A DNA stretch of 51,430 nt. Origin: a virus (taxonomy: Duplodnaviria; Caudoviricetes). The DNA lies in the IMG/VR virus record IMGVR_UViG_3300030333_002795, positions 1 through 51,430 of that record; one strand, given 5' to 3'. Every line of letters begins with the position of its first letter. Positions within the stretch are counted from its first letter, which is position 1. Below the pieces are notes generated by a model. The model worked only from the letters and a program-made list of their open reading frames with translations, did no database searches and was not told the origin of the DNA. The translations under genes and the position numbers were made by a program. Shown one piece after another: positions 4,151-47,190 of the stretch.

Positions 4151-4279
4151 TTAGCCCCTATTTAAAAACGCTTTTACACGGGCACTCAACCCAACTCCTG
4201 CACAGAATGAAAGAGCTGCGATAAGTGCTGTCCACCAAATTGTTCCAAAAAATCCACTAACTGATGCTAAGTATTCCAT
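4151..4279 (-). CDS. 42-aa single-TM membrane protein, module 1
   Basis: Below the ORF-track cutoff: MEYLASVSGFFGTIWWTALIAALSFCAGVGLSARVKAFLNRG. Fills the gap between neighbours exactly and has a conserved paralog at 46560..46706. Confidence 0.8.
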   Translation of the reverse strand: MEYLASVSGFFGTIWWTALIAALSFCAGVGLSARVKAFLNRG

Positions 4280-4765
4280 ATCAATAACCTCGTTTCCTTA
4301 GTTTTTTTCTTGCTGCTTCGTATGCATGATCACCACCTCTGCGTGCAGCTACTGCTTCAGATGGTGTTACTCTGTTTGTGTTTACCTTAAAGTCTAGTTC
4401 TGCTGAACGCATAGCACTCTTTGGTATAAACATTCCCATTGCCCAGAAAATACGCTTAATAAAATGACCCACACCCAGATGCCACACTAAGAATGTAACG
4501 CCCAGAATTGACGCAGCGATAAACGCTCGATCAATTAAGTTCGCCCACCAAGGAGTAGCGTCCCTAACTTTAGGCAAAGTCATTTGTATATCAGATGCGA
4601 GTTCTACTATTTCTTCTTGCTTCTCTATCGCAGACAAAGCCTCACCTTCGACCACCGAGAAGTCATTAGCTTCCATAATGACCTCAAGGTGACCAATGGT
4701 GTCCGATGCGTTACTGCGAATCACTTCGCTGTTAGCACCTATCCGCTCAACTTGTGAACATCCCA
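4221..4765. repeat. Near-identical direct repeat, copy 1 (copy 2 at ~46645..47190)
   Basis: Perfect runs: 4221..4270 = 46645..46694 (50 bp), 4276..4319 = 46703..46746 (44 bp), 4677..4742 = 47104..47169 (66 bp). Confidence 0.9.
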
Positions 4766-4805
4766 CAAGAAGAGTTATGGAGAAGAATAGAGAAATTCGT
4801 TTCAT
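4281..4805 (-). CDS. Lipoprotein with C-terminal TM helix, candidate unimolecular spanin, module 1
   Basis: Signal peptide plus lipobox LLVG-C, ~65-aa helical segment, TM AFIAASILGVTFLVWHLGV and a basic tail. Confidence 0.6.
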   Translation of the reverse strand: MKRISLFFSITLLVGCSQVERIGANSEVIRSNASDTIGHLEVIMEANDFSVVEGEALSAIEKQEEIVELASDIQMTLPKVRDATPWWANLIDRAFIAASILGVTFLVWHLGVGHFIKRIFWAMGMFIPKSAMRSAELDFKVNTNRVTPSEAVAARRGGDHAYEAARKKLRKRGY

Positions 4806-5011
4806 CCTGCCCCCTTCATGAGCAGGCTTATTAGAGTTACTGCCAACCCTGCCATCCCACCAATTACGGCAGACTTGGCTTGTAAGACCCAGACATTCTT
4901 CTCAATGTGTCTGAGCCTTGAGTTCATATCAACTAACTCGTTATCAATAGAATCTAACCTATGCAATACTAGGTTAGCATCTTTTTCCCAGCTTGTGTCT
5001 TTATCTGTCAT
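4802..5011 (-). CDS. Holin-like small membrane protein (coiled coil + C-terminal TM, XhlA-like architecture), module 1
   Basis: RLDSIDNELVDMNSRLRHIEK coiled coil followed by hydrophobic VIGGMAGLAVTLISLL. ATG 5011 is preferred over the track start because it abuts the upstream stop. Confidence 0.55.
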   Translation of the reverse strand: MTDKDTSWEKDANLVLHRLDSIDNELVDMNSRLRHIEKNVWVLQAKSAVIGGMAGLAVTLISLLMKGAG

Positions 5012-5012
5012 A

Positions 5013-5825
5013 TTAGAACCCAAATCCACCTAGTAGACTACTAGCAAAGTCTAGCCCTACACCCACGTTACGTTTTGCTAAATCAATGTGTCTGCCAGCC
5101 CACTCACTCCTGAATTGTACACCAAGTTCTTCAGCGCCCAAACGCCTTCCAGCCCAGTTACCTCTTAAGCTTGCAAGACCTTCTGCAAACTGTCCCTGTA
5201 AGCCAGACTGACCGCCTATTCTCCATTGGTCAAAGTTTGCCATATCCATACCCTGACGAGCAGTAGTAGCAGCATACCTTTGAGCGTAATCAGTTTCAAC
5301 GCCAGCTTCTGCCAAGCCTTGTTGCACCCCAATAGCACCCATCATTTGATTGCCCCAACTTGTGTTAGACAACCCTTGCATAATGTTTTGAGCACGGGTT
5401 TGTCCACGTAGCTCTTGGAACTGTTGACCAACAGCTTGCAACGAAGCTTCTTTACCAGTATCCAAGAAGCCCATCTCTTCAGCTTGGCGTAGTTGCAACT
5501 GTTCTCTGGCTTGCATTGTGCTTTGTTCAAAGAAGTCAAGCATCTCACGGTATTGTGACTGATAGTCTCCTAGTGTTTGCTCTTGCATTCCACCTTCGCC
5601 AAAGATGTCTTCCCAAGCATCTTCCCAAGGTCCCATGACATACTGCTGTTGGGCGTTAATGGCATCTTCAATATCGTCACCACCAAAAAACCCGCCAATT
5701 GAACCAAAGAACGCATATTGCATCCAAGAACCGTCACCCTCTAGCATGCTTTTAACTGCAAACAGAATAAACGCAAGACTAATTACTGGTGCAATGTGTT
5801 TAATAATCTTATGTAATTTTCCCAT
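5013..5825 (-). CDS. Putative DNA pilot/ejection protein, module 1 (270 aa)
   Basis: Directly follows the nozzle gene. Q/A/G-rich helical body with Gly-rich amphipathic ends, as in podovirus small ejection proteins. Paralog of 47448..48245. Confidence 0.6.
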   Translation of the reverse strand: MGKLHKIIKHIAPVISLAFILFAVKSMLEGDGSWMQYAFFGSIGGFFGGDDIEDAINAQQQYVMGPWEDAWEDIFGEGGMQEQTLGDYQSQYREMLDFFEQSTMQAREQLQLRQAEEMGFLDTGKEASLQAVGQQFQELRGQTRAQNIMQGLSNTSWGNQMMGAIGVQQGLAEAGVETDYAQRYAATTARQGMDMANFDQWRIGGQSGLQGQFAEGLASLRGNWAGRRLGAEELGVQFRSEWAGRHIDLAKRNVGVGLDFASSLLGGFGF

Positions 5826-5833
5826 ATCTATCC

Positions 5834-8800
5834 TTACGATGCTATCACTGAACGGTATGGACCGCCTTGTTCTAAGCTTATAGCTAAATCCTCAAGAACC
5901 CACATAGTTCCAGAAGCTGTTATTTCTACTTGGAAATCACTTTCCCTTTTTCTTACCCTAAACCTATTGTTACGCCCTCTATTCAATGTCCAACTCTGTA
6001 GTAAGCGTTTGGTTGTTGCGTCTTGTGTTGGGTCTACAATAACGGAGCTTGCTGTAAAGTTACTTGGTAGGATCTCAACAGAGTTCCAAGTTGACAATGA
6101 TAATGATGCTGTTTCTTCGTCAGCCATGTAAAGAGGAGGAGCGTTGTCTCCAGCACCAAACACTGCCCAACGCCCATCAAAGTTTGAAGACTCTGAAGCT
6201 GAAGTGTTACCGCCCATGCGAACTGTATAAGAATTAGACCGTGACCACTTCTTCATAGAGTCGCTTGATGCAGAGTCGTTTAATGTATAAGTGCCTGTTA
6301 CATCAGCGGCAGAGCCACCGTTAATAAACTGTTTCCAGTTAGCGCCTGCTTCCAATGCAAATGTTTCGTCTTGTATATCGTTGCTATCTATAGCAGTACC
6401 AGTAAGCGTCAAACCAGTAAGCAAGTCAAGACCATTCCAATTATCAGACATACGCAATACCATCTTTGCTTCAGATGAGTCAAGATACGGGTCTTCAGTT
6501 TTTATGTTAAGAAGACCTGCTTGATAATTCAAATCAATACTCTTTTTAACACCCTTCATTATTGCTAACAAATTGCCGTTTGCATCTGCACAACCTATAG
6601 AAGACGCAGTAGATGCGTTGACCCCTAAAGATGAATCAAAGGTTAGAGTTACCGCTGACGTGCCGCTTGCCAAATCATTCAATACAATTGTCTCATTGTT
6701 CAAGTTTGAGATAGAACTATCATGCAACGAGATAGTCGCTTGTATAGCTGGTCTATACTCAGTGCCAACCGCAGTAATGCTTTGACCACCTACAAAGACT
6801 GAAGGTATTGTGACTGAACTTGCTATGGTTTCTGTTATTGGTCTATTGCCTCCACGACCATCAACAGCCTGAATTATACGTAAACTCTGAGCTCCATTAG
6901 CAGCAGCTCCTGCCGCGGGGTCCACAAAAGTAAAGACGCTACTTCCCCCAGCATTGTGTCCGTTAGCGTGATTGATAGCCGCCTTAAGTTGAACCAAGTA
7001 AGTGTAAGCGTTGGACACACTTCCCGTTGTGTTTATACCAACAGCAATGCCACCAATTAACGCATGGTCAGCTGGAATAGTTCCGCTTCCGTAATCGCTA
7101 CCTTCTGCTAAGACTGTGCCTGTTGCTACACCGCCAGCGTTAGTGTCAGTTACTACATAAGTCTTTGTCACACCCGCTGTGCTTGTTATTGTTATGTATT
7201 GTAGTTCTGCTATACCGTGGTCTATTGCATCACCATCGGCAACAGTAATAACTGCATACGCCTTTGCATCTGCGTTACCCGTGTCAATGATAGCTGATGG
7301 GCTGTACGGAGACGAACTGCCCTCTTCAAGTGTTGCAACACCACCATCAATAACAAGCTCAGTCTGAGTTACCTTAATATCGCCACTAACGCCAGAAAGT
7401 ATTTGAGCCATTTCTGCACCATACAAGTTTAATGTTGGTCCAGCTGGCGTAATGCCATCAGTTGCAGTTACCTCGTTCCTGTCTAGCAAAACGTCTAATT
7501 CAGTCATAAGTAAACGTTGATTAGAAAGACCAGCGTTTATCGGTGCCCAAGCTATCCTGCTTTCAAAAGTTTCTTTCGCATCATCAGGAGAGTTGTTAGA
7601 CGCTGATTTTAATGGGCTTGTGTGAGATCCACCGTCATACGCTAAAACACCTGAATTTGGTTGAGTAGTAATTCTTCCTGACTTGCAGCCTATCCAAAGA
7701 CCTTCACGCTCACCAGATATAGGGGAGTACAAACAAGTTGTTCGCACTACGTCCATTCTGGGGTCAGACACTTTAAACGTCCACCATGATTGCGTAGCAA
7801 TATGATGCATGTAATGAACTACATTTAACGGATCAGCCTCTCTATTAACAAACAATAGAATTGTGCCACGCGGTGGGTCATAAGCCAAGTGTAAGTCAAC
7901 TTCAGAAGAGTTAACACCACTAAAGAAACCATCAAGCCTACCAGTAGTAATGCTTTGACCACGCTGAATGTTAAACTGGTTAGGCTGAATTAAATAAACG
8001 CCATCGCCACTAGCAACGTAACAACTCTTTTCTGGTCCTTGACACCACGCATCAGGTCCCATTACACCCACGCCATTGCTCATGCGTATCATTTGTGCGC
8101 CAGTAGTTACAGGGTCAGCAGTTAGATACGTCAATGTACCTTTGCTTGCCATCATCAAACCCGCTTCACCGAACGGGAATATCGCTGTAATAGGTTCACC
8201 CAACACACCAAACTCAGTAGAACTATCACCAGCCTGAGCATCGCTTGATGACAAAGCTGTTGGAGTCCAATCTTCTGCGTCACCAATCTTGGACATAAAC
8301 CAGTTGTTAGGACTAGAACTAATTCCAGCCATAACAATTCTAGCACCAAAACGTGTAATCAAATTACATTTGTTGCCATATGCATCAGTAGGCATTCCAC
8401 CTGTACCGTTGTAGTTAGTCCACTCTTCTATGACTGGTGTTGTAGCAGATAAATCTATCTTGTAATACTGACGACCTGTAACAAGGTACACAACAGTACC
8501 GTACATAGCAGCTCTAACTGTATCACTTGGGTGTATTCTGTTTTGACCAGCAGCGTATGCAGCCCCGCTAAAGTTCGTAATTGTAGCGTTGTCTAAATTA
8601 CCTGTAATATCAGTATTGCCCGTAGATGACGCAGAACCAGCATCTTCTTGAGTTATGGTAACAACAGAGCCTGACGCTGAAGCGTTTAAATGCGCATTAC
8701 CGTCTAAACAGGTTGCAAGTGCTGTGGCATGAGCATCGGTATCTGCACCAGTATTCAAAAAAGATGGAGTATCATCATCACCAGTTGTTGTGCTGCCAGT

Positions 8801-9235
8801 ATCTATAACTGTTGCAACAATAGTGTCGGGAGCACCTACATCGTTTGGAACAATGGTCAATGTTTTACCAGTTGTTGGTGTTCCTGTAAACGTCACCGTT
8901 GCAGTTGCAGCTGCTGTGCTGTAAGCAATATCATGCGTGTTACCGTCACTGTCAGCGTAAAAGACTGAACCCCCAGCAACTATAAGAACCTCTCTAAGCA
9001 GTGAAGTATCTCTGTACACTTCATACTCAAGCAAGCACTGTACGTTTAGGTCATTGTTTACACCCATATCTGCAACTGCTGCAAAGCCTTGCCTAGTTCC
9101 AATCCTTCGCCTGTGCTCAAAGTTATCCATTGGGACAACGTTCATCATAGACGTACTAAACCCATCTGCTCCGTGCTGATGATTCAAGCTGTCGGAGTAA
9201 CCGTTAATCGGGATGGGCATCTGGGCTGTTGGCAT
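5834..9235 (-). CDS. Tail nozzle/stabilization protein (T7 gp12 / P22 gp10-like beta-propeller) with three inserted domains, module 1
   Basis: RIVMAG...NWFMSKIGDAEDW, LGEPITAIFPF, GVGVMGPDAW, LAYDP and C-terminal FQVEITASG..WVLEDL. Lies after the adaptor and fiber genes. Confidence 0.8.
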   Translation of the reverse strand: MPTAQMPIPINGYSDSLNHQHGADGFSTSMMNVVPMDNFEHRRRIGTRQGFAAVADMGVNNDLNVQCLLEYEVYRDTSLLREVLIVAGGSVFYADSDGNTHDIAYSTAAATATVTFTGTPTTGKTLTIVPNDVGAPDTIVATVIDTGSTTTGDDDTPSFLNTGADTDAHATALATCLDGNAHLNASASGSVVTITQEDAGSASSTGNTDITGNLDNATITNFSGAAYAAGQNRIHPSDTVRAAMYGTVVYLVTGRQYYKIDLSATTPVIEEWTNYNGTGGMPTDAYGNKCNLITRFGARIVMAGISSSPNNWFMSKIGDAEDWTPTALSSSDAQAGDSSTEFGVLGEPITAIFPFGEAGLMMASKGTLTYLTADPVTTGAQMIRMSNGVGVMGPDAWCQGPEKSCYVASGDGVYLIQPNQFNIQRGQSITTGRLDGFFSGVNSSEVDLHLAYDPPRGTILLFVNREADPLNVVHYMHHIATQSWWTFKVSDPRMDVVRTTCLYSPISGEREGLWIGCKSGRITTQPNSGVLAYDGGSHTSPLKSASNNSPDDAKETFESRIAWAPINAGLSNQRLLMTELDVLLDRNEVTATDGITPAGPTLNLYGAEMAQILSGVSGDIKVTQTELVIDGGVATLEEGSSSPYSPSAIIDTGNADAKAYAVITVADGDAIDHGIAELQYITITSTAGVTKTYVVTDTNAGGVATGTVLAEGSDYGSGTIPADHALIGGIAVGINTTGSVSNAYTYLVQLKAAINHANGHNAGGSSVFTFVDPAAGAAANGAQSLRIIQAVDGRGGNRPITETIASSVTIPSVFVGGQSITAVGTEYRPAIQATISLHDSSISNLNNETIVLNDLASGTSAVTLTFDSSLGVNASTASSIGCADANGNLLAIMKGVKKSIDLNYQAGLLNIKTEDPYLDSSEAKMVLRMSDNWNGLDLLTGLTLTGTAIDSNDIQDETFALEAGANWKQFINGGSAADVTGTYTLNDSASSDSMKKWSRSNSYTVRMGGNTSASESSNFDGRWAVFGAGDNAPPLYMADEETASLSLSTWNSVEILPSNFTASSVIVDPTQDATTKRLLQSWTLNRGRNNRFRVRKRESDFQVEITASGTMWVLEDLAISLEQGGPYRSVIAS

Positions 9236-10491
9236 TATTGGGTCCTCAACCCGTAAACTTCAAAGGTCCCAGTAATGTTGTAACCACCATCGTTTTCTAT
9301 TCTAAAGTTCTTAATATGATTACCGTTTTTATCTTTAATATTAATAGCATTGGTTGTAGTAAGCTCTCTGTTTACTGTTACTGAGTGAACCAAATACTCA
9401 CCTTTGTTATCGTGTTCACTACAACCTGAAATTACAACTCTGGCAGAAGACCGTTGACCAGAGCTGCCCGAACCCATTTTGGCAGCACTTATTGAAAAAA
9501 AACTACTTCCGCCAGTAGACCAGCTGGTACCTCTTTTTACGTTTAGCCTTAAAATGTCTTGATAACTATGGCTCATTAAACCAGACAACACTATTAAAAA
9601 CTCACTATAAATATCTGAAGCGTCAGAGTCACACATGGACGCAGTTGCACTTGTAGCATTAGACCAAGAACCCGAACCTAATAATTCATAACCTATGTAG
9701 TGACTGTCATCTACATACTTTTTAGTAGCTACGCCTTGATTAGTAGTCGGGTCAACAACATTGATAATCTTCTTAGTGTTCATATCCAATTCGCCATGGA
9801 TATTATGTTCAGCTGTTCCAGTCATACTAAGAACACCGCTGCCTGTGATATTAACCGCAGACACGTTTGATGTTGTCGTAATTACACCAGAAGCATCTAT
9901 GTTCGCACACTTTGCAATGTCACCATCATTGTCAACTCTAAAGGTACTGTTGTTATTATTGTAATGATGAATAACAGCGTCAGTAGCATTGGCACTACCT
10001 GATGAGCGTGTCATCAACTGACCATAATTAGTTTCGGCTTTAATTTGAACGCCTGTTGTTGTGCCCGTGTCTGCACCGATTAACACCTTCTTGCCAGCGT
10101 CTATTGTTGTGTCACCCTTGACAGCAACGTTGCCACTCTTGTCTACTGAAAAGACAAGTGTTGTTGAGTCATGTGCTTCAACGCCAAGGATTTTCGCGTT
10201 TTGTTCTTCAAGACCTTTAAGCAAGAAGGTAGTAACGTCTCCAGAACCGCCAGTGCCGCCTACAGGTTGATTTGCTGCGGAACTAGAGTTTTCAAGAATG
10301 TTTGCTACGCCAGACATTACAGGTGTTGCATGTGCAAGGTCCTTCCAAACAGAAGTGCCGTTGCCCACCTTTAAGCCTACGGTATTATTATTAGAGTCTA
10401 ATACTAACCCAATCTCGCCTTGCGCAAGTATGGGGTTTGCAAGGTTCCAGTCACCTTCTGTATCTCTTCGTACTTGTATTTGTGTTGCCAT
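9235..10491 (-). CDS. Tail fiber/receptor-binding protein with Mtd-N/hyaluronidase-type N-terminal domain, module 1
   Basis: MATQIQVRRDT..W..ANPILAQGEIG....LKVGNGTSVWKDL N-terminus, KIINVVDPTTNQGVATKKYVD neck motif and C-terminal GTFEVYGL. Confidence 0.8.
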   Translation of the reverse strand: MATQIQVRRDTEGDWNLANPILAQGEIGLVLDSNNNTVGLKVGNGTSVWKDLAHATPVMSGVANILENSSSAANQPVGGTGGSGDVTTFLLKGLEEQNAKILGVEAHDSTTLVFSVDKSGNVAVKGDTTIDAGKKVLIGADTGTTTGVQIKAETNYGQLMTRSSGSANATDAVIHHYNNNNSTFRVDNDGDIAKCANIDASGVITTTSNVSAVNITGSGVLSMTGTAEHNIHGELDMNTKKIINVVDPTTNQGVATKKYVDDSHYIGYELLGSGSWSNATSATASMCDSDASDIYSEFLIVLSGLMSHSYQDILRLNVKRGTSWSTGGSSFFSISAAKMGSGSSGQRSSARVVISGCSEHDNKGEYLVHSVTVNRELTTTNAINIKDKNGNHIKNFRIENDGGYNITGTFEVYGLRTQ

Positions 10492-10494
10492 AGT

Positions 10495-11409: not shown

Positions 11410-11434
11410 AGTATTCCCTCAATGGTTGCGAGTA

Positions 11435-11458: not shown

Positions 11459-11481
11459 CGTTCGGAACCAGTAGGTTCAGT

Positions 11482-16257: not shown

Positions 16258-17096
16258 TATGAGCAGTCCCACTTATCTTGTAGATAATTCAAAGTTTGTG
16301 TTCTCTCAGCAGCAGTGTGAGCACCCGACCACACAAGTACCTCGGCAATCTCGCCATACCACACATCAGCCTCATCAACATCAGTGCCTAAAGTAAGTGT
16401 AATTGTTTCGCCTAATGAGTCAAACATTGTGTCAGGGTCAACTGAGTATTGTGTACCCACACCAGTGTCATCCCAATCACATGCTACGCCACCAATCCAC
16501 TGCTCAAAAGTCATGTCTGAACCAACATCAGTGCAGACATTAAACGATGTGACCGCTGTGCCTTGCGTAAAATCAATTTGTGATGTGTCAAAATGGTTAG
16601 CGTTACCGTTGATTCTAAACGCAGCACCCTGATTGTGTCTCATCAGAAATACCTTGTCGTTCTGACCACCACTGCCATTAAGCACGAAATACTTCTCAGT
16701 GCCATCAGAATTTGATGTTTCATTTAACACCATGGCGATTGTCCATTCAGGGTCTATTGCCGCTGAACCACCACTACCAAATATATTAGAAAAATCAATG
16801 TCTGTGTTATTAACATAGGTAGGTGTATTATTAGACTTGCCGCCATCGTGAGTTAACTTCATTACCTTCTTGCCAGCAAATTGACCTGCGGTCACACCAA
16901 ACGATGGCATTTTATCTACCGTAGTCATCACCAAGTGATTACCCTTACCTGAACGGTCGTACAGTTTCACTTGTAGAGCACTGTCCTCAAAGAAGTCATT
17001 ATGCGTAGTACACCACAACTGTAAGTCATTCATCCTTGGAGGAAGAACTACAGAGTCAACAACATTGTTATTGTTATTTAGCGTGTTATTATTCAA
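16257..17096 (-). CDS. LamG/concanavalin-A-like jelly-roll virion protein
   Basis: LQLW....DRSGKGNHL and YGEIAEVLVWSGA.TAAE....NYLQDKW motifs. Confidence 0.7.
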   Translation of the reverse strand: MNNNTLNNNNNVVDSVVLPPRMNDLQLWCTTHNDFFEDSALQVKLYDRSGKGNHLVMTTVDKMPSFGVTAGQFAGKKVMKLTHDGGKSNNTPTYVNNTDIDFSNIFGSGGSAAIDPEWTIAMVLNETSNSDGTEKYFVLNGSGGQNDKVFLMRHNQGAAFRINGNANHFDTSQIDFTQGTAVTSFNVCTDVGSDMTFEQWIGGVACDWDDTGVGTQYSVDPDTMFDSLGETITLTLGTDVDEADVWYGEIAEVLVWSGAHTAAERTQTLNYLQDKWDCS

Positions 17097-17200
17097 TAAC
17101 CGCCCCGCCTGACCTTCTTACCAGTCTTCTTAGCAGCCTTCTTTGCTGCTGCCTTGCCCTTTTTAGTGTAAGGATATTTCTTCTTTCCTACCTTTGGCAT
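17093..17200 (-). CDS. 35-aa highly basic protein (possible DNA-condensing peptide)
   Basis: Below the ORF-track cutoff: MPKVGKKKYPYTKKGKAAAKKAAKKTGKKVRRGGY. RBS AAGGGGGG, and its stop overlaps the next start. Confidence 0.7.
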   Translation of the reverse strand: MPKVGKKKYPYTKKGKAAAKKAAKKTGKKVRRGGY

Positions 17201-17216
17201 AGTGCCCCCCTTGTGT

Positions 17217-17510
17217 TTATGTGGCTACCCACGATATATCGTCATTGTTTTGTGCTGCAATAGCGTAAATCAAACTTGGTGAGCCTGCTGAAATTGTTAT
17301 CTGCTGACCTGCTCTTAACTCAAACCCTGTTGATGTAGACACTGACGAGTCGCCAATGTACACTGATCCTGCATTCGCTACCATTGCTTTAATCGTAACT
17401 TCTGACATTACAAGGTCTTGCGAATCGCCTATTACAGTAGTTGATGAACTTGACAAGTTAGTTTGGCCAGAGTAAATGGCTGTTGGTTTTATTCTTTCAA
17501 ATGATGGCAT
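17217..17510 (-). CDS. Small beta-sandwich virion structural protein
   Basis: VTIKA...NAGSVYIG.....TGFELRAG motif. RBS GGAGG. Confidence 0.55.
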   Translation of the reverse strand: MPSFERIKPTAIYSGQTNLSSSSTTVIGDSQDLVMSEVTIKAMVANAGSVYIGDSSVSTSTGFELRAGQQITISAGSPSLIYAIAAQNNDDISWVAT

Positions 17511-17562
17511 ATGCCCTCCCTACGGTTTGTATCGACAAACTACCTAACAAAATACTAATTTG

Positions 17563-19287
17563 TCAACTCATATTCGGTAAAATGTCGTCCATTTTAAATA
17601 TTGTTTTAGCCTGAAAGTCAGGCAAGCCTGTCTCTGGCTCAACCCTGTCAGCATTACCACACGCCCTTTCAGCCATGCGTAGTGCCAAGGCAATAGCGAC
17701 AACTCTGTCACCGTGTGCCTCAACAGCCCCACTAGAACTATCAAGTTCAAGTCTAGCAGGACCTATCCCGCCATTGTCGTACACAACTGTAGTTTCCATC
17801 TCATCTAGTATTTCAGAGTCAGGAATAGTTATTGTGTCATCAGCTATAGCCCTTGCTAAGTCACCAAACAATGTTCGCTTCTCTTGCCTAGATGATGTCC
17901 AACCTGGCTTGCCACGCTTCTCACGATAAATAGCAGGATACTTTAAACGCTCAAGGTCATGATGCATTGCAGCACCTGGACCATTGACTTCCCATCCAAT
18001 TAGCATGTCCGAGCGACCTCTCGCCCAACTTCTACCAGCAACAACCATCTCTCTTGCTAAATCGTATGGTGAGCAGTGTGGGTCTACATATACAGCAACG
18101 ACCTCTCGCCTCTCTACATCTAGCATTACCGCAGCAGCATTGTGTCTACCAGTGCCATAAGCAGGGTCTGCTCCAATCACTAACTTACTGGCTCTTGTTG
18201 GCTCTCTGAACACACGCCATCGACCCGATGGTGAGTCAACTAGATGTCCTTCAACGACCTCGCACCGCCTTGGTTCTGACACTGCCTGCCTGCACCTAAC
18301 AATGTGAGCCAATGAAAAGAAGCCCTTACCTGCGGTTGAAGGCAATGCAAGCACGTTCTCTCTAATGTCTACAAGGTCACGCCTTGACAGTTGCCTCTCG
18401 AACCATGGTGACCAGTAGTATTTTCTTCCTGGCTCACCAGTCACTGTGCCATCTATGTCAGTACGCCACTCGCCTCCTTTGGATTTAGCAGGATGACCCT
18501 CATATGTCGTGAGCACTGGGACAGGGTCACCCAATGACTCTGCTGTTGGCCACAGCGTTCTAGTGAAGTAACTGCCTGTTAAATGTGTACTTACAGCAAT
18601 CCTGCATGATGTTGTATCCGCTGCTGAACGCCACGCTGCTTCTAGTTTGTCTTGTGCTGCTGCCTCATCAAACACTACAAATGTACGCCTACCACCACGA
18701 CCAATGTGTTCAGTCGTTGATTGACCGACAATTGAGTGACCATCGGGATGAGTGAGCACCATGTGCCTTCTGTTCTTTCCACCTGGCATCAGAACGCTAC
18801 GATCACATGGTAGTAAACAGGAAGGCAACTTCTCAACCATCGAGTCTATTCGAGGGAAGAGGGAGTCTAAGTCGCCCGACCTGTCTACCAAATCCTCAGT
18901 CCGTGAACATATGAGCACAGACCAGCCATGATATAGCCATCCCCACAAGGCAATAGACAGCATGAGCCATGAAGCACCCATCTCCCTACTCTTTGCCCAG
19001 ACCACATCATTGCCATCCCTTATGTTGTTTACTACACCCCTAATCACACCCTGCTGGCTCTCCCATGGTATGAATGGCTGCGTTGATGTTTCAGCAGGTC
19101 GCTCAGTGCCATCATCAGTGACCTCTTTAATGACCTTTGTCCAACCACCAGCCATTAAGAACGCAACTGCATCCTGCTCAACGACCGCCCTAACAACAGC
19201 CTGCTCTTCAGGTGTGCCTGCGGTCATAGCCCTCAACTCAAGGGCAAACTCCAATGTGTCATCACTGTGCAGTTGTTGGTTCGTCAT
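17563..19287 (-). CDS. terL: Terminase large subunit
   Basis: Walker A KSREMGASW, Walker B VVFDEAA, nuclease motifs IGADPAYG and HGDRVVA. Confidence 0.92.
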   Translation of the reverse strand: MTNQQLHSDDTLEFALELRAMTAGTPEEQAVVRAVVEQDAVAFLMAGGWTKVIKEVTDDGTERPAETSTQPFIPWESQQGVIRGVVNNIRDGNDVVWAKSREMGASWLMLSIALWGWLYHGWSVLICSRTEDLVDRSGDLDSLFPRIDSMVEKLPSCLLPCDRSVLMPGGKNRRHMVLTHPDGHSIVGQSTTEHIGRGGRRTFVVFDEAAAQDKLEAAWRSAADTTSCRIAVSTHLTGSYFTRTLWPTAESLGDPVPVLTTYEGHPAKSKGGEWRTDIDGTVTGEPGRKYYWSPWFERQLSRRDLVDIRENVLALPSTAGKGFFSLAHIVRCRQAVSEPRRCEVVEGHLVDSPSGRWRVFREPTRASKLVIGADPAYGTGRHNAAAVMLDVERREVVAVYVDPHCSPYDLAREMVVAGRSWARGRSDMLIGWEVNGPGAAMHHDLERLKYPAIYREKRGKPGWTSSRQEKRTLFGDLARAIADDTITIPDSEILDEMETTVVYDNGGIGPARLELDSSSGAVEAHGDRVVAIALALRMAERACGNADRVEPETGLPDFQAKTIFKMDDILPNMS

Positions 19288-19702
19288 CAGTTCCGCCTGG
19301 TAGTGCCCTCATTCTTTGTTCTATTTGCTTCACAGCCTCACGGACCAACTCTTCATCAACTCTTGCAATTTGCAGTGGACCACCACCAGGACCTGTGATT
19401 TGCGTGTGTGTTTGAGGTTGATACTTCTGTCTATTTGCTTGCAGTACAAGACGTGCAGCATTGACTTGGACAGCAGAGCCTTCTTCATGACCTAGAGCTA
19501 TATCTTCGAGAGCCTGCTCAACACGGTCAACTCGCTCTCCCAAAGCCTGATCTTCCTCTAGACGGAATCCCTCCGAGGATTGTCTCAAGCGATATATGTG
19601 GGTCATCGACAAGCCAGCCTTGTTTGCTGCTGCGCACTTCCCCAAAGTTGGCAGCAGTCTTAGATACTCCGCCTTTGCTACTTCTGTCTTTGATTTGCTC
19701 AT
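19262..19702 (-). CDS. terS: Terminase small subunit
   Basis: HTH (AAANKAGLSMTHIYRLR), helical oligomerisation region and ITGPGGGPLQI tail. Overlaps the terL start. Start moved to ATG 19702. Confidence 0.75.
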   Translation of the reverse strand: MSKSKTEVAKAEYLRLLPTLGKCAAANKAGLSMTHIYRLRQSSEGFRLEEDQALGERVDRVEQALEDIALGHEEGSAVQVNAARLVLQANRQKYQPQTHTQITGPGGGPLQIARVDEELVREAVKQIEQRMRALPGGTDDEPTTAQ

Positions 19703-19817
19703 CGCACCTCTCGCCTGTACAGCATGGCCCAATATTAACACCACAACGCACACACTGCATGTGTCCATGCACGATCACTACTTTTTTACTTAAATTACAA
19801 TAAGGACAACGTCTCAT
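19527..19817 (-). CDS. Small zinc-finger protein
   Basis: CPYC..HGHMQCVRC..NIGPCC.GE. The C-terminal part overlaps terS in another frame. Confidence 0.5.
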   Translation of the reverse strand: MRRCPYCNLSKKVVIVHGHMQCVRCGVNIGPCCTGERCDEQIKDRSSKGGVSKTAANFGEVRSSKQGWLVDDPHISLETILGGIPSRGRSGFGRAS

Positions 19818-19827
19818 AGACAAAAGT

Positions 19828-19925
19828 ATATAGCAAAACTATAGCATTGCCATAGCAAAGCCATGAATTTGTCATAAGCAAATGGATAGACATCACCTTC
19901 ACCATCACCTTCACCATTACCTATA
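19828..19925. repeat. Iteron-like repeats in the divergent intergenic region (candidate origin/regulatory region)
   Basis: ATAGCA at 19830, 19841 and 19852 (11-bp period). CATCACCTTCAC twice in tandem at 19891..19914. An AT-rich stretch follows. Confidence 0.6.
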
Positions 19926-20052
19926 CAAATACAGTCAATAATTACTACACAATTAGACATCTTTTGATTGGGTTTTCATCTATTTGATATTTTTTTTCAA
20001 GATTAGTCACATATTGATAAAGTTTTCTGTTACCCTCTTCCGATAGATAGGT

Positions 20053-20113
20053 AGCAGGAGGCGGGGTCGTATTCAACTACTCCTTCACGGCCCCGCACCT
20101 GCTTTTTAAGGAG
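20053..20113 (+). promoter_or_regulatory. Leader hairpin + T5 tract directly upstream of the first early-gene RBS
   Basis: AGCAGG/CCTGCT and GCGGGGTCGT/ACGGCCCCGC stems. The loop contains CTCCTT, and the hairpin is followed by TTTTT-AAGGAG. Confidence 0.6.
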
Positions 20114-20120
20114 CAAACTA

Positions 20121-20273
20121 ATGACTAAGCAAACAAGAACTGAGATGCACCATGTCAACATCCAGAGCCACAACACACGGTTCGGTCAGAAAGCTGGCAT
20201 GACCAAGACCAAGAAGTCAAACACTAGAACTGTAAGTGTAAAAGCCTCATACAAGAAACGAGGTCGCAAGTGA
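20121..20273 (+). CDS. 50-aa basic hypothetical protein
   Basis: Strong RBS AAGGAG. MTKQTRTEMHHVNIQ...YKKRGRK. GTGA overlap with the next gene. Confidence 0.65.
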   Translation: MTKQTRTEMHHVNIQSHNTRFGQKAGMTKTKKSNTRTVSVKASYKKRGRK

Positions 20274-20926
20274 GTAGACTAATACCTAAAAACACAGTGT
20301 TTTGGCACGAGCATTTGTCTGGCAACCAGATGGGTGTCAACTTTAACAACAAGTTGTACAAGCTGAATAAGATTATGGCTTTGGGTCAGATGCCCTACTA
20401 CATATTGGTTAACAAAGTAGTAGATCAGCGTTGGGATTACAGGGCAGAGAAGTTTGTAGGCAGAAGCCATTGGAACATACTTATCAAAAAGTGGGTAACA
20501 CCCAAGGAGCACTTACGTTGGGGAGAGTGCAAGAGTACGCCAAAGCAGTCTACTTTGTGGACTAAATACGAACCAAAAAGCAGCGTAAGTGTATCTGATT
20601 TGTATGGTGTTTACCTAACCAAAGAATACCACGACAAAATCAAAGACATCGAAGAGTTTAACAAGTCAAGGATTAAGTGGCTCAAGGGTCTTAAACTTGC
20701 CACATGGAAACTCAAGAAAAGGCGTGATCTTTACAGTATAGTGGACGGTCTTATCAGAGAAGCAAGCGTAGACACGGCTAGATTGCCTAAAGCACACATG
20801 TGGAAGGATGGCAGTAGATGGACTCCAGTTACATTTGATGGAGACCCTGCGATATTCTTTGACACACTGGAAGAAGCACAAAACTACATTAACACTAAAA
20901 AGAGTGAAAAGGAGTTATCACTATGA
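20270..20926 (+). CDS. Hypothetical protein (218 aa, K/W-rich)
   Basis: ORF coupled at both ends. No recognised motif. Confidence 0.65.
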   Translation: MSRLIPKNTVFWHEHLSGNQMGVNFNNKLYKLNKIMALGQMPYYILVNKVVDQRWDYRAEKFVGRSHWNILIKKWVTPKEHLRWGECKSTPKQSTLWTKYEPKSSVSVSDLYGVYLTKEYHDKIKDIEEFNKSRIKWLKGLKLATWKLKKRRDLYSIVDGLIREASVDTARLPKAHMWKDGSRWTPVTFDGDPAIFFDTLEEAQNYINTKKSEKELSL

Positions 20927-21756
20927 AAACAGTTGAACACAACCCAGTTAATATACTTAGGGCAACCTACTTCGAGAACAAGGCGGTTAATCAGTCGCTA
21001 CTCAAGCAGGTCTTGAAGTCACCACTTCATGCATGGCACTACATGAACACCCCAAATGAGCCAACACCAGCAATGGCACTAGGCACAGCAATACACACAA
21101 AGTTACTTGAATACGACCTATTTGAAGAAAAGATTGCTGTTCTGCCAGAGATAAACCGCAGGACCAAAGAGGGCAAAGAGCAATACAACAGGTTTGTTGC
21201 GTCAGCAAAAGGCAAGACCATAATTACACAAGAACAGAACAAGAGGTGTGATGCTGCCTTTGCCATGGTTTGCAAAAACGACAAATTTTGCAACATCCTT
21301 GATGATGTGAACTACGAACATGAGTTGGCATTGGGGTGGGAAGACAAGAAGCACAAGATGAACTGCAAGGCATGCCTAGACCTTATCAACTTTGAAACCA
21401 AAGAAATCATTGATCTCAAGACAACTTCTGATGCAAGTTACTCAGGTTTTAGCAGGTCTAGTGCAAACTTCATGTATCACCTGCAAGCAGCATTCTATCT
21501 AAGAGCCGCTACAGGTCTTAGTGGCGTTGAGGCGATGAAAGATGGTTGGACATATAAGATTATGGCTGTTGAGTCAGTTCAACCGCACGGCTGCGCAATG
21601 TTTGAGTTTGACAAAAACGCTATCGCAGAGGGCGACAGACTTGTTGAGAGAGCAATGACTGCATGGGCAAATGCACTCGTCTGGTCAGAGTTTGACGGAT
21701 ACACACAAGAGACACAGAAACTATCACTTCCAGTTTGGGCCATTTCAGAAGAGTAA
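20923..21756 (+). CDS. PD-(D/E)XK exonuclease, RecE/exonuclease VIII-like (DUF3799)
   Basis: SLLKQVLKSP.H, LGTAIH..LLE, CKACLD, IIDLKTT, YHLQAAFY and LSLPVWA. Confidence 0.88.
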   Translation: MKTVEHNPVNILRATYFENKAVNQSLLKQVLKSPLHAWHYMNTPNEPTPAMALGTAIHTKLLEYDLFEEKIAVLPEINRRTKEGKEQYNRFVASAKGKTIITQEQNKRCDAAFAMVCKNDKFCNILDDVNYEHELALGWEDKKHKMNCKACLDLINFETKEIIDLKTTSDASYSGFSRSSANFMYHLQAAFYLRAATGLSGVEAMKDGWTYKIMAVESVQPHGCAMFEFDKNAIAEGDRLVERAMTAWANALVWSEFDGYTQETQKLSLPVWAISEE

Positions 21757-21767
21757 AGGAGGCTACT

Positions 21768-22427: not shown

Positions 22428-22429
22428 GG

Positions 22430-23328: not shown

Positions 23329-23330
23329 TT

Positions 23331-26794: not shown

Positions 26795-26864
26795 CAAACT
26801 GCTACATACACCACATCATAAATTACATAGAACCTATCCCAAAACAGTTGGTTAAATGTGACTA

Positions 26865-28284: not shown

Positions 28285-28287
28285 ATA

Positions 28288-44676: not shown

Positions 44677-46217
44677 TATTTATCCAATTCCCTTAAGTGT
44701 TTGTCAAGAATTTCCATAATAGAAATTTTAAGTTCCTCAAGTTTTGTTGCGTCACCGCCTCTTAACTCTTCTAGTCCATCTAATATAGTTTTAATGTCTT
44801 CTAGTGGATTTTTAGACTTTTCTAACATCTGTTGAATTTCTAAAACTTTTTGTTCATTAGATAGAGTAGTGCTTTGAAGATCTGCCCTAACGGTGTCCAT
44901 ATTCAAAGCTCTTTCCTCAGCAGCTGTTCTCGCTATTGCTTCACCTGCTGTTTTTCTTTCGACATCAACAGCAGTGTCAGGCGTAATACCGCCTTGGTCT
45001 GCATATGGTGCTACACTCAATATGTGCTTGCCATCTGGGCTAGTAGACATAGTTACCTTTTGAGTTTCGTCTTCTTGTGTAGTAGGGTCATCTTCAACTA
45101 CAGTATGTTCTTGACCTTCAGTTGCAACTTGTAAATTCTTGTTGCCAACATGCTCTTTAAACGCCTGTTGAATTGCCACCATGTCTAACTCAATAGGTGC
45201 TTGCCATCCAAACTGAGAAGAAAGCCACTGTAAGTGTTGCATTACATTTGCTGCGTTTGCCTCCCATGAGTTGTCTGAATCTCTGTCTGTAATAGACATT
45301 TGAACAGGAGATTGGCCAACTTGCGGAACACCTAACTCTAGTAATTGAAGCCAGGTTTTGTAACACTCTTTAGCCATGTAGGGGTTGCCTAGAGCCACTC
45401 CTGGAGACAAACTCATGTCCATGCCCTGATGTGGTTTAAACGATGCTGCTCTTGATGCCAAGTCAGCATGAGCCATCAAATGTCTTTTTGCGTTTGAATG
45501 AACTCTGTTATCAGCGTTAGGGTCTGTGCTTAACTGACTTTCATAAAACTCTAGTTGCTTTTTGTAATGCGTTGACCATGAGTCTATTGTTTGCTGTGCA
45601 ACTTGGGCAGAACGTTGGTAGGCGTTGTCATTTCCAATTTTCCATTTAATTTGGGCAGCACGTTCTGAATCTCTGTCTTCGAGTCTCTGCAAGTCATACA
45701 TCATTTTTAATGTATTAATAGGGTCTTTCTGATAAGCGTCTTTTAATGCCGCTGAAAACATTGGGTTTGAACCATCATCTAGATTTTGCAAGCCATATTC
45801 AAACGCACCTTGGTTTTCGGTAATAGCATCAGTAAGTTCTTGTTGTTCTTTTTCATACTGCCTTACCTTGGCATTGTTTTCTTCTTGTGCCTGCTTAATA
45901 GCCATCCACTTTTCATCTGTAACAGTAAGAAACTGCATACGACCTTGGTCGTCTTCAGTCATAATTACAGGCTCATTGTGCCTACCTGTGCCAAGTCTCC
46001 ACTGACCAATACCTGCTGGGTCGCCAGTATTTAAAGACTCTACCTTTTCAGCCATAGTCCTAGGATATCTACCCCAATCAATAGCCACCTCACTTTTTGT
46101 TGTTGGTGGGTCTGTTGTTGGTAGGGCAGCATCCTGATTAAGATTTTCAGTTTGATCTACGACTTCTGTTTCAGAGCCAGAACTTAAACCATTTTGTATA
46201 TCGTTTGCTAATGTCAT
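44676..46217 (-). CDS. Putative ejection/internal virion protein, module 2 (513 aa)
   Basis: DPAGIGQWRLG....EPVIMTEDDQG...TDEKWMAIK aligns with NPVGLEHMTLG....EPIVIYLDDFG...TTAQWMGMK of 1960..3729. Confidence 0.7.
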   Translation of the reverse strand: MTLANDIQNGLSSGSETEVVDQTENLNQDAALPTTDPPTTKSEVAIDWGRYPRTMAEKVESLNTGDPAGIGQWRLGTGRHNEPVIMTEDDQGRMQFLTVTDEKWMAIKQAQEENNAKVRQYEKEQQELTDAITENQGAFEYGLQNLDDGSNPMFSAALKDAYQKDPINTLKMMYDLQRLEDRDSERAAQIKWKIGNDNAYQRSAQVAQQTIDSWSTHYKKQLEFYESQLSTDPNADNRVHSNAKRHLMAHADLASRAASFKPHQGMDMSLSPGVALGNPYMAKECYKTWLQLLELGVPQVGQSPVQMSITDRDSDNSWEANAANVMQHLQWLSSQFGWQAPIELDMVAIQQAFKEHVGNKNLQVATEGQEHTVVEDDPTTQEDETQKVTMSTSPDGKHILSVAPYADQGGITPDTAVDVERKTAGEAIARTAAEERALNMDTVRADLQSTTLSNEQKVLEIQQMLEKSKNPLEDIKTILDGLEELRGGDATKLEELKISIMEILDKHLRELDK

Positions 46218-46558
46218 CCTTGCCGCCTTGTTGGGTTGTTGAAGCCAAAGAACGAACTAATTATGTGTTTCACTGTGCCTGGAACGTCTTCTTTAATGTC
46301 GTAGTTCTTCATAAACTCTTGATCACGAATCGCTTCCATAGTTTTAATATCGTCTTTTCTCATAGCTTCTTGCATCTTACGGTCGTGAAGTGCGTCTAGG
46401 CCACCAGAAAAAGTGTTCCCTGTAATGCCCTCAAGCCCACTTTTAATACCAGACAAAATGCCAGACATCATCTGACTACTACCACCTTTTGCTGACATCC
46501 TGCCTGCAAATGTTTTAGGTTGCTCTATGTTTGCTAATTCTTCGCTTCTATCAATCAT
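46214..46558 (-). CDS. Hypothetical small virion/ejection protein, module 2
   Basis: Start set at ATG 46558 (RBS AGAGG, follows the upstream stop). Contains amphipathic Gly-rich helices. Confidence 0.6.
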   Translation of the reverse strand: MIDRSEELANIEQPKTFAGRMSAKGGSSQMMSGILSGIKSGLEGITGNTFSGGLDALHDRKMQEAMRKDDIKTMEAIRDQEFMKNYDIKEDVPGTVKHIISSFFGFNNPTRRQG

Positions 46559-46559
46559 T

Positions 46560-46706
46560 TTAACCTCTGTCGCAGTCCCCACATCTGAGGAAAGACTTTA
46601 CTCGTGAACTCATTGCAATGCCTGCACAGAATGACACTGATGCAATAAGTGCTGTCCACCAAATTGTTCCAAAAAATCCACTAACTGATGCTAATAAGTA
46701 ACCCAT
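46560..46706 (-). CDS. 48-aa single-TM membrane protein, module 2
   Basis: MGYLLASVSGFFGTIWWTALIASVSFCAGIAMSSRVKSFLRCGDCDRG. Paralog of 4151..4279. Confidence 0.8.
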   Translation of the reverse strand: MGYLLASVSGFFGTIWWTALIASVSFCAGIAMSSRVKSFLRCGDCDRG

Positions 46707-47190
46707 ATCAATAACCTCGTTTCCTTAGTTTTTTTCTTGCTGCTTCATATGCATGATCACCACCCCTGCGAGCAGCAACTGCTTCGGATGGTGTTACTTT
46801 ATTTGTGTTTACCTTAAAGTCTAACTCTGCTGAACGCATAGCACTCTTTGGTATAAACAATCCCATAGCCCAGAAAATACGCTTAATTAAATGCCCCACA
46901 CCTAGATGCCACACTAAAAATGTAACACCTAATATTGACGCAGCAATAAATGCCCTGTCAATTAAATTTGCCCACCAAGGAGTAGCATCCCTAACTTTGG
47001 GCAAAGTCATTTGAATATCAGATGCAAGTTCTACAATCTCTTCTTGCTTGTCCATAGCAGACAAAGCCTCACCTTCAATCACCGAGAAGTCATTCGCTTC
47101 CAAAATGACCTCAAGGTGACCAATGGTGTCCGATGCGTTACTGCGAATCACTTCGCTGTTAGCACCTATTCTTTCCACTTGTGAGCATCC
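46645..47190. repeat. Near-identical direct repeat, copy 2
   Basis: See copy 1. Same orientation, offset about 42,427 bp. Confidence 0.9.

Follow-up and report, generated by a model that had tools for sequence, protein, structure and literature searches.

The window (the whole stretch of DNA analyzed, 51.4 kb) is an entire IMG/VR record of 51,430 bp, which is linear according to its IMG/VR class and has a CheckV completeness of 100%. Nine gene families occur twice along it in the same order (eight protein pairs were compared, the TM-peptide gene being the ninth), once in a left-hand module A and once in a right-hand module B. Each module holds one copy of a core that consists of the TM-peptide gene (42 and 48 aa) and the mature part of a 174-aa lipoprotein gene; the two copies lie about 42.4 kb apart. 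Between the two cores every gene family is found once, as an earlier note on this DNA had stated, and the gene order is that of the complete 40.6-kb relative G001. The features are collected in Table 1.

Table 1. Features of the window; A and B denote the two modules, X and Y the two putative source phages.
Feature	Position	Strand	Remarks
Giant protein A, N-terminal 647 aa, cut by record start	1..1941	-	ORF list; putative phage X
589-aa protein, module A left half	1960..3729	-	no PHROG/Pfam match; 81% to G001
139-aa protein, module A, variable gene	3729..4148	-	present in run X2
TM-peptide gene copy 1, 42 aa, left part of core	4151..4279	-	traced ORF
Lipoprotein gene copy 1, 174 aa	4281..4805	-	lipobox Cys16, helical part, TM helix, basic tail
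75-aa protein copy 1, C-terminal TM anchor	4802..5029	-	phrog_1103 (function unknown), E 3e-4
Module A right half: 270-aa, 1133-aa and 418-aa (Mtd_N) tail-associated genes	5013..10491	-	
Head/portal block: 304, 146, capsid 435, scaffold 313, 99, portal 586 aa	10495..16272	-	G001-like; putative phage X
Probable pivot from phage X to phage Y	16676..17209	.	X1 contig gaps and depth; X-like phage of run X3
Segment S: 97-aa protein, large and small terminase (-), early operon (+)	17037..26970	.	one X1 contig
Late genes of putative phage Y: 85-aa, 262-aa metallophosphoesterase, giant B, 513-aa, 122/114-aa	27229..46582	-	
Giant protein B, 5462 aa	28288-44676	-	41% over 1733 aa to G002
TM-peptide gene copy 2, 48 aa	46560..46706	-	traced ORF
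Lipoprotein gene copy 2, 174 aa	46708..47232	-	
Module B right half: 72-aa, 265-aa, 846-aa, 418-like C-terminal 213 aa cut by record end	47229..51429	-	

The truncated giant protein A is 90% identical in amino acids to the first 647 aa of a 4333-aa protein of G001, and a public contig of sequencing run X1 extends about 73 nt beyond position 1 of the record. In the place of the 139-aa gene, other sequence is found in G001, in the relatives' contigs L011 and L012, and in run X3. The early operon of segment S encodes an exonuclease VIII-like protein (phrog_412, 3.6e-57), a Sak-like annealing protein (phrog_659, 9.6e-32), a methyltransferase and a RusA-like protein; the RecE-like/Sak pair named in the earlier note is hence encoded, together with a RusA-like enzyme. 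Its labels fiber, nozzle, pilot, holin and ejectosome, on the other hand, find no support in PHROG or Pfam apart from the Mtd_N domain of the 418-aa protein.

The repeat is detected as two blocks, 4268-4567 against 46695-46994 (90%, spacing 42427) and 4173-4270 against 46597-46694 (87%, spacing 42424), in keeping with the offset of about 42,427 bp proposed before; blastn aligns 4173-5033 with 46597-47468 at 82.1% over 876 columns. In the MAFFT alignment, the high-identity core spans 4194-4742 with 51 differences in 552 columns (90.8%), the stretch on its right, 4743-5033, has 62.6% identity (Fisher p 2e-22 versus the core), and the stretch before 4173 has 34%. The "near-identical ~560-bp core" of the earlier note is a real repeat of about 550 bp, for which "near-identical" is a generous term, given 9% divergence. 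Exact runs within it measure 47 bp (4221-4267), 44 bp (4276-4319), 34, 22, 20, 20 and 66 bp (4677-4742); the first reaches 50 bp when a 3-nt indel (TAA) is left ungapped in the count, and so counted the perfect runs of 50, 44 and 66 bp described previously are recovered. The right edge is abrupt: the 66-bp run ends at 4742, and identity over the next 50 bases is about 54%, inside the lipoprotein gene.

Seven differences in 160 residues separate the two mature lipoproteins, the number already counted in the earlier note, and the copies are 94% identical in amino acids; in the protein search, the next-nearest family members reach 56-69% and family members altogether 36-69%. Between copies 1 and 2, the lipoprotein gene has a dS of 0.53 and a dN of 0.033, the TM-peptide gene a dS of 0.11 and a dN of 0.23 (37 codons). 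For six flanking gene pairs, dS is 2.05, 2.17, saturated, saturated, 2.24 and 2.30. A comparison of dS between the modules had been proposed as a check, and synonymous divergence at the level of the neighbors is not seen in the core. Because dS is 0.11-0.53 in the core versus more than 2 in every flank, these substitution rates suggest that the core was exchanged recently between lineages. Most likely, it is a commonplace piece of recently exchanged DNA such as mosaic phage genomes contain.

Outside the core the protein pairs are strongly diverged, as had been claimed. The N-termini of giant proteins A and B share 28% of their amino acids, as do the 589-aa and 513-aa proteins, and the 139-aa protein has no significant match to the 122-aa ORF of module B. 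Identity is 34% for the 270-aa and 265-aa proteins, 38-75% by segment for the 1133-aa and 846-aa proteins, 31% for the 418-aa protein and its 213-aa counterpart, and 68%, with saturated dS, for the 75-aa and 72-aa proteins. The 75-aa protein may be called holin-like by its position only. In the family alignment of the lipoprotein, Cys16 is invariant in 17 of 17 sequences and a TPWWA motif is present; the predicted structure, a weak and simple model, is all-helical (pLDDT 72, pTM 0.36) with a helix at residues 86-123. Its Atlas look-alikes are exclusively viral and annotated as "Lipoprotein family protein", and neither PHROG nor Pfam yields a match.

The length of the record is conspicuous. Close relatives (G001-G005, completeness at least 90%) measure 37,183-40,986 bp, so that the record is about 1.25 times the genome size of its family; direct terminal repeats are present in G001 (40,643 bp, complete) and G005. 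The lipoprotein gene is single-copy in all 11 relatives' records checked and in two copies in none of them, where the 11 comprise G001 and ten (G002-G011) of 80 loci kept from 283 relatives. Both modules are joined on one molecule in this record only. A circular genome walked 1.2 times was considered and ruled out: the first and last 120 or so bases of the record have no match to the other copy, and because the two ends do not converge on it, the record is not a simple wrap-around. GC and GC3 vary by segment between 0.41 and 0.48 without a clean step and do not discriminate. Among cultured phages, neither the core region at the DNA level nor the capsid has a match, and all matches of the large terminase remain below 60% identity, and no single place in any of 135 records spans 80% of the query. 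A relative of the lipoprotein was not found in prokaryote genomes, close relatives of the 513-aa (left) and 265-aa (right) proteins of module B were not found in IMG/VR, an independent contig of module B was not found, and Rfam and tRNA scans gave no match.

Comparison with relatives reveals that the left part of the record (1-16.3 kb) tracks one lineage and the remainder another. Between 10520 and about 16300, most windows are 93-100% identical in DNA to G001, interrupted by brief drops at 11.6-11.9, 12.2-12.3 and 12.5-12.6 kb; beyond, identity is roughly 50-88%, mostly 65-76%. At the protein level, the portal is 98% identical to G001 and 68% to G002, and the 304-aa protein 97% to G001. The order is reversed for the large terminase (74% to G001, 85% to the G002 clade), the methyltransferase (32% and 71%) and the 513-aa protein (25% and 37%). 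A closer X-like phage in the sister run X3 matches the left half of module A, core copy 1 (9 differences in 868) and 10459-16823; it follows the record to about 17209 and then drops below 95%. Natural mosaicism by itself could explain a discordance of lineages.

A second kind of discordance concerns the two halves of the modules. G001 is 81-90% identical to A in the left half and 28-56% in the right half. The contigs L036 and L037 share 70-78% identity with A in the 270-aa and 1133-aa proteins, 44-46% in the 418-aa protein and 40-57% in the left half; L034 has a left half nearer to B and a right half nearer to A. Positions 4151 and 5018-5030, which delimit a conserved cassette of three genes (75-aa protein, lipoprotein, TM peptide), are recurrent breakpoints, and one further breakpoint, at about 4743, lies inside the lipoprotein gene. 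These comparisons support, on the evidence of sequence relationships, a reassortment of the attachment half and the giant-protein half among relatives, with separate histories. L013 and the runs X2 and X6 contain the right half of module A at 91-97%. The flanks of core copy 1 are each backed by separate contigs, the left by L011 and run X3, the right by L013 and run X2; because independent contigs support each flank, the join seemingly does not lie at the core. No single independent contig links the 589-aa and giant-A genes with the 270-aa and 1133-aa genes.

Read depth was considered in run X1, in which 0.94 of the sampled words are found; it is probably the source sample and hence not independent of the record. 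Depths are one mean per Logan contig rather than per-base values, for contigs placed on 1-20000, and with 31 of 116 pieces and 40 of 652 differences listed for this region, the figures apply among the matches listed; stretches of 1-20000 uncovered in runs X2, X3 and X6 are not counted as absence. Among the contigs listed, depth is 11.6 and 10.6 in the left half of module A, 9.31, 8.2 and 9.69 in its right half, and 9.41 and 13 in the head genes, i.e. 8.2-13 across 1158-16302. The contigs stop at 16302 and resume at 17037, where a single 9,934-nt contig of depth 24.7 covers 17037-20000 and continues to about 26970, an end computed from its length. By bins, depth is about 14x at 16303-16675 and about 31x at 16676-17037, followed by 24.7x. 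The only listed contig over 4267-4275 is a B-type core of depth 29.3, marked by the TAA insertion after 4267 and changes at 4274 and 4275. The depth of segment S may reflect either a segment shared by both phages (about 11 + 14) or a more abundant phage Y alone. An apparent joint from 8036 to 1 in run X1 was rejected as an 18-nt chance match inside a contig that runs past the record start.

We consider it likely that the record is a chimera of two co-occurring, related marine phages, with the pivot at about 16.7-17.2 kb or across a shared 10-kb segment. Both source phages would belong to an uncultured marine family whose genomes measure about 40-42 kb. Phage X would contribute positions 1 to about 16.7 kb, with the N-terminus of giant A, module A and the G001-like head genes, and phage Y about 17.0-51.4 kb, with the terminase, early genes, giant B and module B; the assembler may have crossed from X to Y via a short common stretch at about 16.7-17.2 kb, or have taken the 10-kb terminase/early segment as common. 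With two phages in one contig, the modules would therefore correspond to each other as orthologous regions in separate genomes instead of being paralogs within a single one. The core of about 550 bp remains a real biological signal, a tract that would have been transferred between lineages X and Y at a recent date compared with the age of the other module parts. Homologous recombination during co-infection is the likely route, presumably aided by the phage's own exonuclease/Sak-like/RusA set. The suggestion in the earlier note that two related phages of about 42 kb could have been joined is supported, although the join seems to lie not at the core, where the note had placed it, but either around 16.7-17.2 kb or over the 10-kb segment of terminase and early genes.

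A misjoin at the cores themselves appears very improbable. In that case, the real genome would be the 42.4-kb circle between the cores, and the ends of the record (giant A/589/139 and 72/265/846/213) would derive from a second phage via the shared perfect runs. Such a circle has each gene exactly once in G001 order, an assembly at small k would treat the perfect runs of 44-66 bp as repeat nodes, and G001 itself joins an A-like left half to a tail protein of 389 aa that is nearer to B (53%) than to A (29%); moreover, depths left (10.6-11.6) and right (8.2-9.7) of core copy 1 differ slightly among the contigs listed, and no independent contig bridges the two sides. The model nevertheless requires two genome switches in one contig, at repeats shorter than the read pair, and leaves the 8-13x of the right half and head genes mismatched with the 24.7x of S unless S is shared as well. 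The left half of module A, core copy 1 and these head genes also occur together in G001, L012 and the X3 phage, and L011 matches all of core copy 1 at 97%, so this copy is not visibly a patchwork of two parents. Very improbable, too, is a correct record, i.e. one replicon with both modules (a larger genome, a heterodimeric cointegrate or a replicative intermediate) in which the core is an intramolecular hinge able to release a 42.4-kb hybrid. The contig does exist as assembled, short-read graphs cannot separate a cointegrate from two circles with a common segment, recombinase genes are encoded and dS in the core is low. Yet none of the 11 relatives carries two copies, and with the remainder of giant A the genome would reach at least 63 kb, while an 88%-identical capsid protein resides in the 40.6-kb G001. 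Depths are uneven, with 29.3 for the B-type core piece versus about 11 for the A flanks, and 9% core divergence does not fit ongoing conversion within one molecule. The crossover that was to excise a hybrid from a single replicon thus has against it the single copy in each of the 11 relatives checked, a record of about 1.25 times the genome size of the family and the depth step from 8-13x to 24.7x; the idea of a shuffling hinge survives at the population level only, where the halves reassort with breakpoints at cassette edges, and not within one genome.

Least likely among these explanations is that the core is similar merely through strong purifying selection on the lipoprotein and TM peptide, without recent exchange. 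The very low dN of the lipoprotein (0.033) and its many positions invariant across the family would agree with this. However, protein-level selection does not hold synonymous sites, where dS is 0.11-0.53 versus more than 2 in the flanks; other family members in the protein search reach only 36-69% versus 94% between A and B; the 66-bp perfect run drops to about 54% inside the same gene; and no Rfam family or conserved antisense ORF was found that would explain constraint at the DNA level.

Scored as 100% complete yet probably mixing two phages, the record is unfit as a reference genome or for host-range inference, and given this probable mixing it is no evidence that a phage carries its tail and ejection modules in duplicate. 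The remaining biology is a clear but ordinary exchange of a tract of about 550 bp between diverged, co-occurring marine phages, in a family whose tail half and giant-protein half reassort. More tentatively, we hypothesize that the three-gene cassette is a preferred crossover site in this uncultured marine family: co-infecting phages might swap the receptor-binding half against the giant-protein half by means of their own exonuclease/Sak/RusA, X and Y, both abundant in one sample, would have been caught soon after, and four fiber/giant-protein combinations would circulate. If so, the cassette would offer a handle on the shuffling of host-recognition and DNA-delivery functions in uncultured marine phages.

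The lipoprotein recalls the unimolecular spanin of phage T1, gp11, which combines an N-terminal lipobox cysteine and a membrane helix in one small protein. The lipoprotein likewise has a lipobox Cys and a predicted TM helix in one chain, and its gene adjoins small TM-protein genes downstream of tail genes; unlike gp11, it has no PHROG or Pfam match, its model is all-helical with about 50 residues after the TM helix, and no endolysin was identified near its gene. Botstein's module theory holds that phages exchange DNA at conserved stretches between functional modules, for which the boundary sequences of lambdoid phages are an example. In line with modular evolution, the nearest relatives of the receptor-side half are not those of the giant-protein half, and breakpoints fall at cassette edges; in contrast to the lambdoid boundary sequences, the conserved stretch consists of coding genes (TM peptide, lipoprotein, 75-aa protein) instead of a non-coding linker, and one breakpoint (about 4743) falls within the lipoprotein gene. 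Rad52-like recombinases, as described for lambda Red-beta and phi80 RecT, join short, diverged homologies, at a cost of only about 100-fold for 12% divergence (PMC3945230). Those temperate coliphages differ from the present uncultured marine phages, in which an integrase was not found, whose lipoprotein has no relative in prokaryote genomes and in which the recombinase would have a presumed role; the resemblance lies in an island of about 550 bp of 9% diverged homology in otherwise unrelated sequence, in sharp mosaic boundaries, and in the encoded exonuclease VIII-like, Sak-like (Rad52-type) and RusA proteins. Over-length IMG/VR contigs with more than one genome copy are regarded as probable metagenome assembly artifacts where the CheckV paper treats them (PMC8116208), and like those cases the present record exceeds the genome size of its family and holds a second collinear gene set. 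In the cases treated there, the same genome is repeated and is caught by k-mer frequency. Here, the second gene set is 28-94% identical as protein to the first and would therefore come from another phage; no k-mer test would flag such a record, and its CheckV completeness is 100%.

The window spans the whole of a public virus record, a single contig of 51,430 bp that IMG/VR classes as linear and CheckV as 100% complete, with late genes almost all on the minus strand. PHROGs matches cover both terminase subunits (large and small), the portal, the capsid, a metallophosphoesterase, a DNA methyltransferase, RusA, and exonuclease VIII-like and Sak-like annealing proteins. Neither the tail-side proteins nor the giant ones match any PHROG or Pfam family, save the 418-aa protein, which has an Mtd_N domain. 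PHROGs, tRNA and Rfam scans found no integrase, tRNA or Rfam family in the window, searches with the core-region DNA, capsid and terL retrieved no close cultured phage, and no carrier of the lipoprotein gene was found among prokaryote genomes. The cytosine methyltransferase gene is split into two same-frame ORFs with a stop and about 290 bp between them; the second has a charged, repeat-bearing start (33-nt repeats at 25398, 25497 and 25620), a 544-aa ORF in another frame overlaps both, and the Rfam scan gave no intron.

Features of the window, depth in sequencing run X1 and breakpoints among relatives (G, records; L, IMG/VR loci; X, sequencing runs)
Feature	Position	Strand	Remark
Module A	1-10491		collinear with B
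TM-peptide genes	4151-4279, 46560-46706	-	
Core, copy 1	4194-4742		
Portal	14512-16272		
terL	17563-19287		
Early operon	20270-26794	+	ORF list
Methyltransferase ORFs	24315-24986, 25275-25970	+	same frame
544-aa ORF	24268-25902		other frame
Module B	28288-51430		collinear with A
Giant protein B	28288-44676	-	5462 aa
X1 depth, among pieces listed	1158-3725		11.6 and 10.6
X1 depth, among pieces listed	5009-10048		9.31, 8.2, 9.69
X1 depth, among pieces listed	10025-11741		9.41
X1 depth, among pieces listed	13024-16302		13
X1 depth, among pieces listed	17037-20000		24.7; 9,934-nt contig, to about 26970 by its length
Breakpoint	4151		TM-peptide gene stop; G001, L011, L012, X3, X2
Breakpoint	about 4743-4763		B, L013, X2
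Breakpoint	5018-5030		G001, L011, L012, X2, X3

Module A comprises, in order, a giant protein cut by the record start (N-terminal 647 aa), genes of 589 and 139 aa, a 42-aa TM peptide, a 174-aa lipoprotein, and genes of 75, 270, 1133 and 418 aa; module B comprises its giant, 513, 122/114, a 48-aa TM peptide, a 174-aa lipoprotein, 72, 265 and 846 aa, and, truncated where the record ends, a 418-like gene of which the C-terminal 213 aa remain. Protein identity between counterparts is 28% for both the giant N-terminus and 589/513, 34% for 270/265, 38-75%, by segment, for 1133/846, 31% for 418/213, 68% for 75/72 and 94% for the lipoprotein; the 139-aa and 122-aa proteins give no protein match. Giant protein B is a single ORF of 16.4 kb, which would fill about 39% of a genome of 42 kb, with no PHROG match and a sub-threshold Pfam hint only (DUF6782 metallopeptidase, E 0.006). 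Its counterpart in G001, the closest relative, has 4333 aa and is 42% identical over the last ~960 residues only and 28% over the first ~850.

The earlier note had reported a near-identical core occurring in both modules. The duplication is confirmed: the copies are spaced by 42427 and 42424 bp, share perfect runs of 47 (50 ungapped), 44, 34 and 66 bp, and differ at 7 of 160 residues of the mature lipoprotein. The wording was generous: the duplicated tract is of high identity, but the alignment of both copies holds 51 differences in 552 columns (90.8% identity), a divergence of 9%. Beside the core, identity is 62.6% in 4743-5033 and 34% in 4101-4172.

The core is younger than its surroundings. 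Between copies A and B, dS (Nei-Gojobori method) amounts to 0.53 over the whole lipoprotein; 30-codon windows give 1.47 in the signal peptide and 0.16-0.93 in the mature part. The TM peptide, compared over 37 codons, has a dS of 0.11. Among the flanking pairs, dS is 2.05 for the giant N-terminus, 2.17 for 589/513, 2.24 for 270/265 and 2.30 for 1133/846, and saturated for 139/122 and 75/72. Synonymous divergence as high as in the neighbours, which the earlier note had named as the mark of purifying selection only, is thus not what is found (0.11-0.53 versus more than 2 in the flanks). Because of this low dS, of the 94% identity of copy B to copy A against 36-69% for the other family members that the protein search retrieved, and of a sharp drop within the lipoprotein gene, where a 66-bp perfect run gives way to about 54% identity at the point where the signal peptide meets the mature part, the core bears the signature of a recombination tract and not of purifying selection alone. 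It is also patchy, dS varying sixfold among windows, and a variant patch at 4623-4670 common to loci L011 and L012 is partly present in B, which points to repeated exchanges. In the TM-peptide gene dN (0.23) exceeds dS, which with 37 codons is not significant alone; the changes cluster in the C-terminal third, where the exchanged tract also fades.

The lipoprotein family is viral and widespread (283 relatives in IMG/VR), and its members share an invariant cysteine in the lipobox, a membrane helix entered through a TPWWA motif, and a basic C-terminal tail; the predicted structure is all-helical (pLDDT 72, pTM 0.36). The gene is flanked by two small TM-protein genes. Topology and position suggest a putative spanin-like lysis role; the lipoprotein matches no PHROGs or Pfam family.

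The window is probably not one genome. G001 (40,643 bp, exact 77-bp terminal repeat, completeness 100%) carries every gene once, in the order of the window, and its capsid protein is 88% identical; other close relatives measure 37.2-41.0 kb. The lipoprotein is single-copy in all 11 relatives' records examined, namely G001 and 10 of the 80 loci kept from the 283 relatives, five of them from a separate 64-69 kb group. These five (L045, L046, L065, L075 and L091; records G007-G011) carry one family member at 33-36% identity; one has terminal repeats and four are 100% complete. A molecule with both modules and the missing remainder of giant A would be at least 63 kb, against 40.6 kb for G001 with its closely similar capsid protein.

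Twenty sequencing runs were listed for positions 1-10000, and four of them were compared over 1-20000 through their Logan contigs. X1, in which 0.94 of the sampled words are present, is probably the sample of origin; depths are one mean per contig, with 31 of 116 pieces listed. Computed from bins, depth stands at about 14x over 16303-16675, rising to about 31x over 16676-17037. At 4267-4275 the sole contig among the pieces listed has module B variants (a TAA insertion and two substitutions) at depth 29.3. Such steps in depth should not occur in a single molecule. X1, the likely source sample, contains further variants: contigs part from the record at 2224, 9331 and 14642, and two of them at 3742, while near 12043, within the capsid gene, there is a contig of depth 25.7.

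Lineages are discordant along the window as well. Between 10520 and about 16300, most windows are 93-100% identical in DNA to G001, apart from short dips within the genes for the 146-aa protein and the capsid; beyond, the figure is about 50-88%, mostly 65-76%. Protein identities to G001 and to a second relative, G002, are respectively 98% and 68% for the portal, 97% and 56% for a 304-aa protein, 90% and 30% for giant A, 74% and 85% for terL, 49% and 63% for terS, 32% and 71% for the methyltransferase, 25% and 37% for the 513-aa protein, and 66% and 78% for the 72-aa protein. The nearest relatives of portal and terL differ, with a module boundary between the two genes; the L016-L022 clade matches terL at 85% and the portal at 63-68%. 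Run X3, of the same study, contains a phage 97-99% identical to the giant A/589/139 side of core copy 1, to that copy and to the head genes; it tracks the window to about 17209 and falls below 95% thereafter, so this lineage is naturally attached to another terminase and early region.

On the simplest account, the assembler would have extended the terminase and early-gene segment both ways, running into phage X, the proposed source of the left part, at one end and into phage Y, the proposed source of the rest, at the other; alternatively, it may have crossed at a short stretch shared by X and Y at about 16.7-17.2 kb. The segment could be common to both phages, at depths of about 11 + 14, as the contig breaks at both its ends suggest, or belong to a more abundant phage Y, as the B-type core piece at 29.3 suggests. 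If the join were instead at the cores, the 42.4-kb hybrid would be the true genome, and no single independent contig does bridge 589/giant A to 270/1133; but the assembly would then have had to switch genomes twice, each time at a repeat shorter than a read pair, and each side of core copy 1 is backed by independent contigs, the 589-aa gene being linked to the whole core in L011 (89-97%) and X3 (98-99%), while L013 and run X2 join the core with the 270-aa and 1133-aa genes. We consider a join at the cores improbable, and less likely than one at the segment or at about 16.7-17.2 kb. A real cointegrate carrying both modules is compatible with short-read graphs, and we give it a marginally smaller chance still.

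In view of copy number, size, depth, lineage and X3, the record is most likely a chimeric contig, and such a contig is the most likely basis of the earlier claim of a single two-module genome with a hybrid that can be excised. The CheckV authors (PMC8116208) treat over-length IMG/VR contigs as probable assembly artefacts; this record escapes the CheckV k-mer test because the duplicate set of genes belongs to another phage.

Relatives combine the two halves of the module differently. G001 has an A-like left half (81-90%) and a distant right half (28-56%); in L036 and L037 the 270-aa and 1133-aa proteins are nearer A (70-78%), with the 418-aa protein at 44-46% and the left half at 40-57%; for L034/G002, B is the closer module on the left side and A on the right side. 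At population level, reassortment of the two halves is real, with breakpoints recurring at the edges of the cassette of 75-aa, lipoprotein and TM-peptide genes, which may be a preferred site or just one conserved island among variable genes. The phage has genes for enzymes of a kind known from other systems to act on short, diverged homologies, and in the lytic cycle, according to PMC3945230, 12% divergence cut recombination about 100-fold only. Of the idea of a shuffling hinge, the recent exchange tract, the recombinase genes and the reassorting halves stand, and the two-module single genome releasing a hybrid most likely does not; the pattern of exchange is that of standard phage mosaicism.
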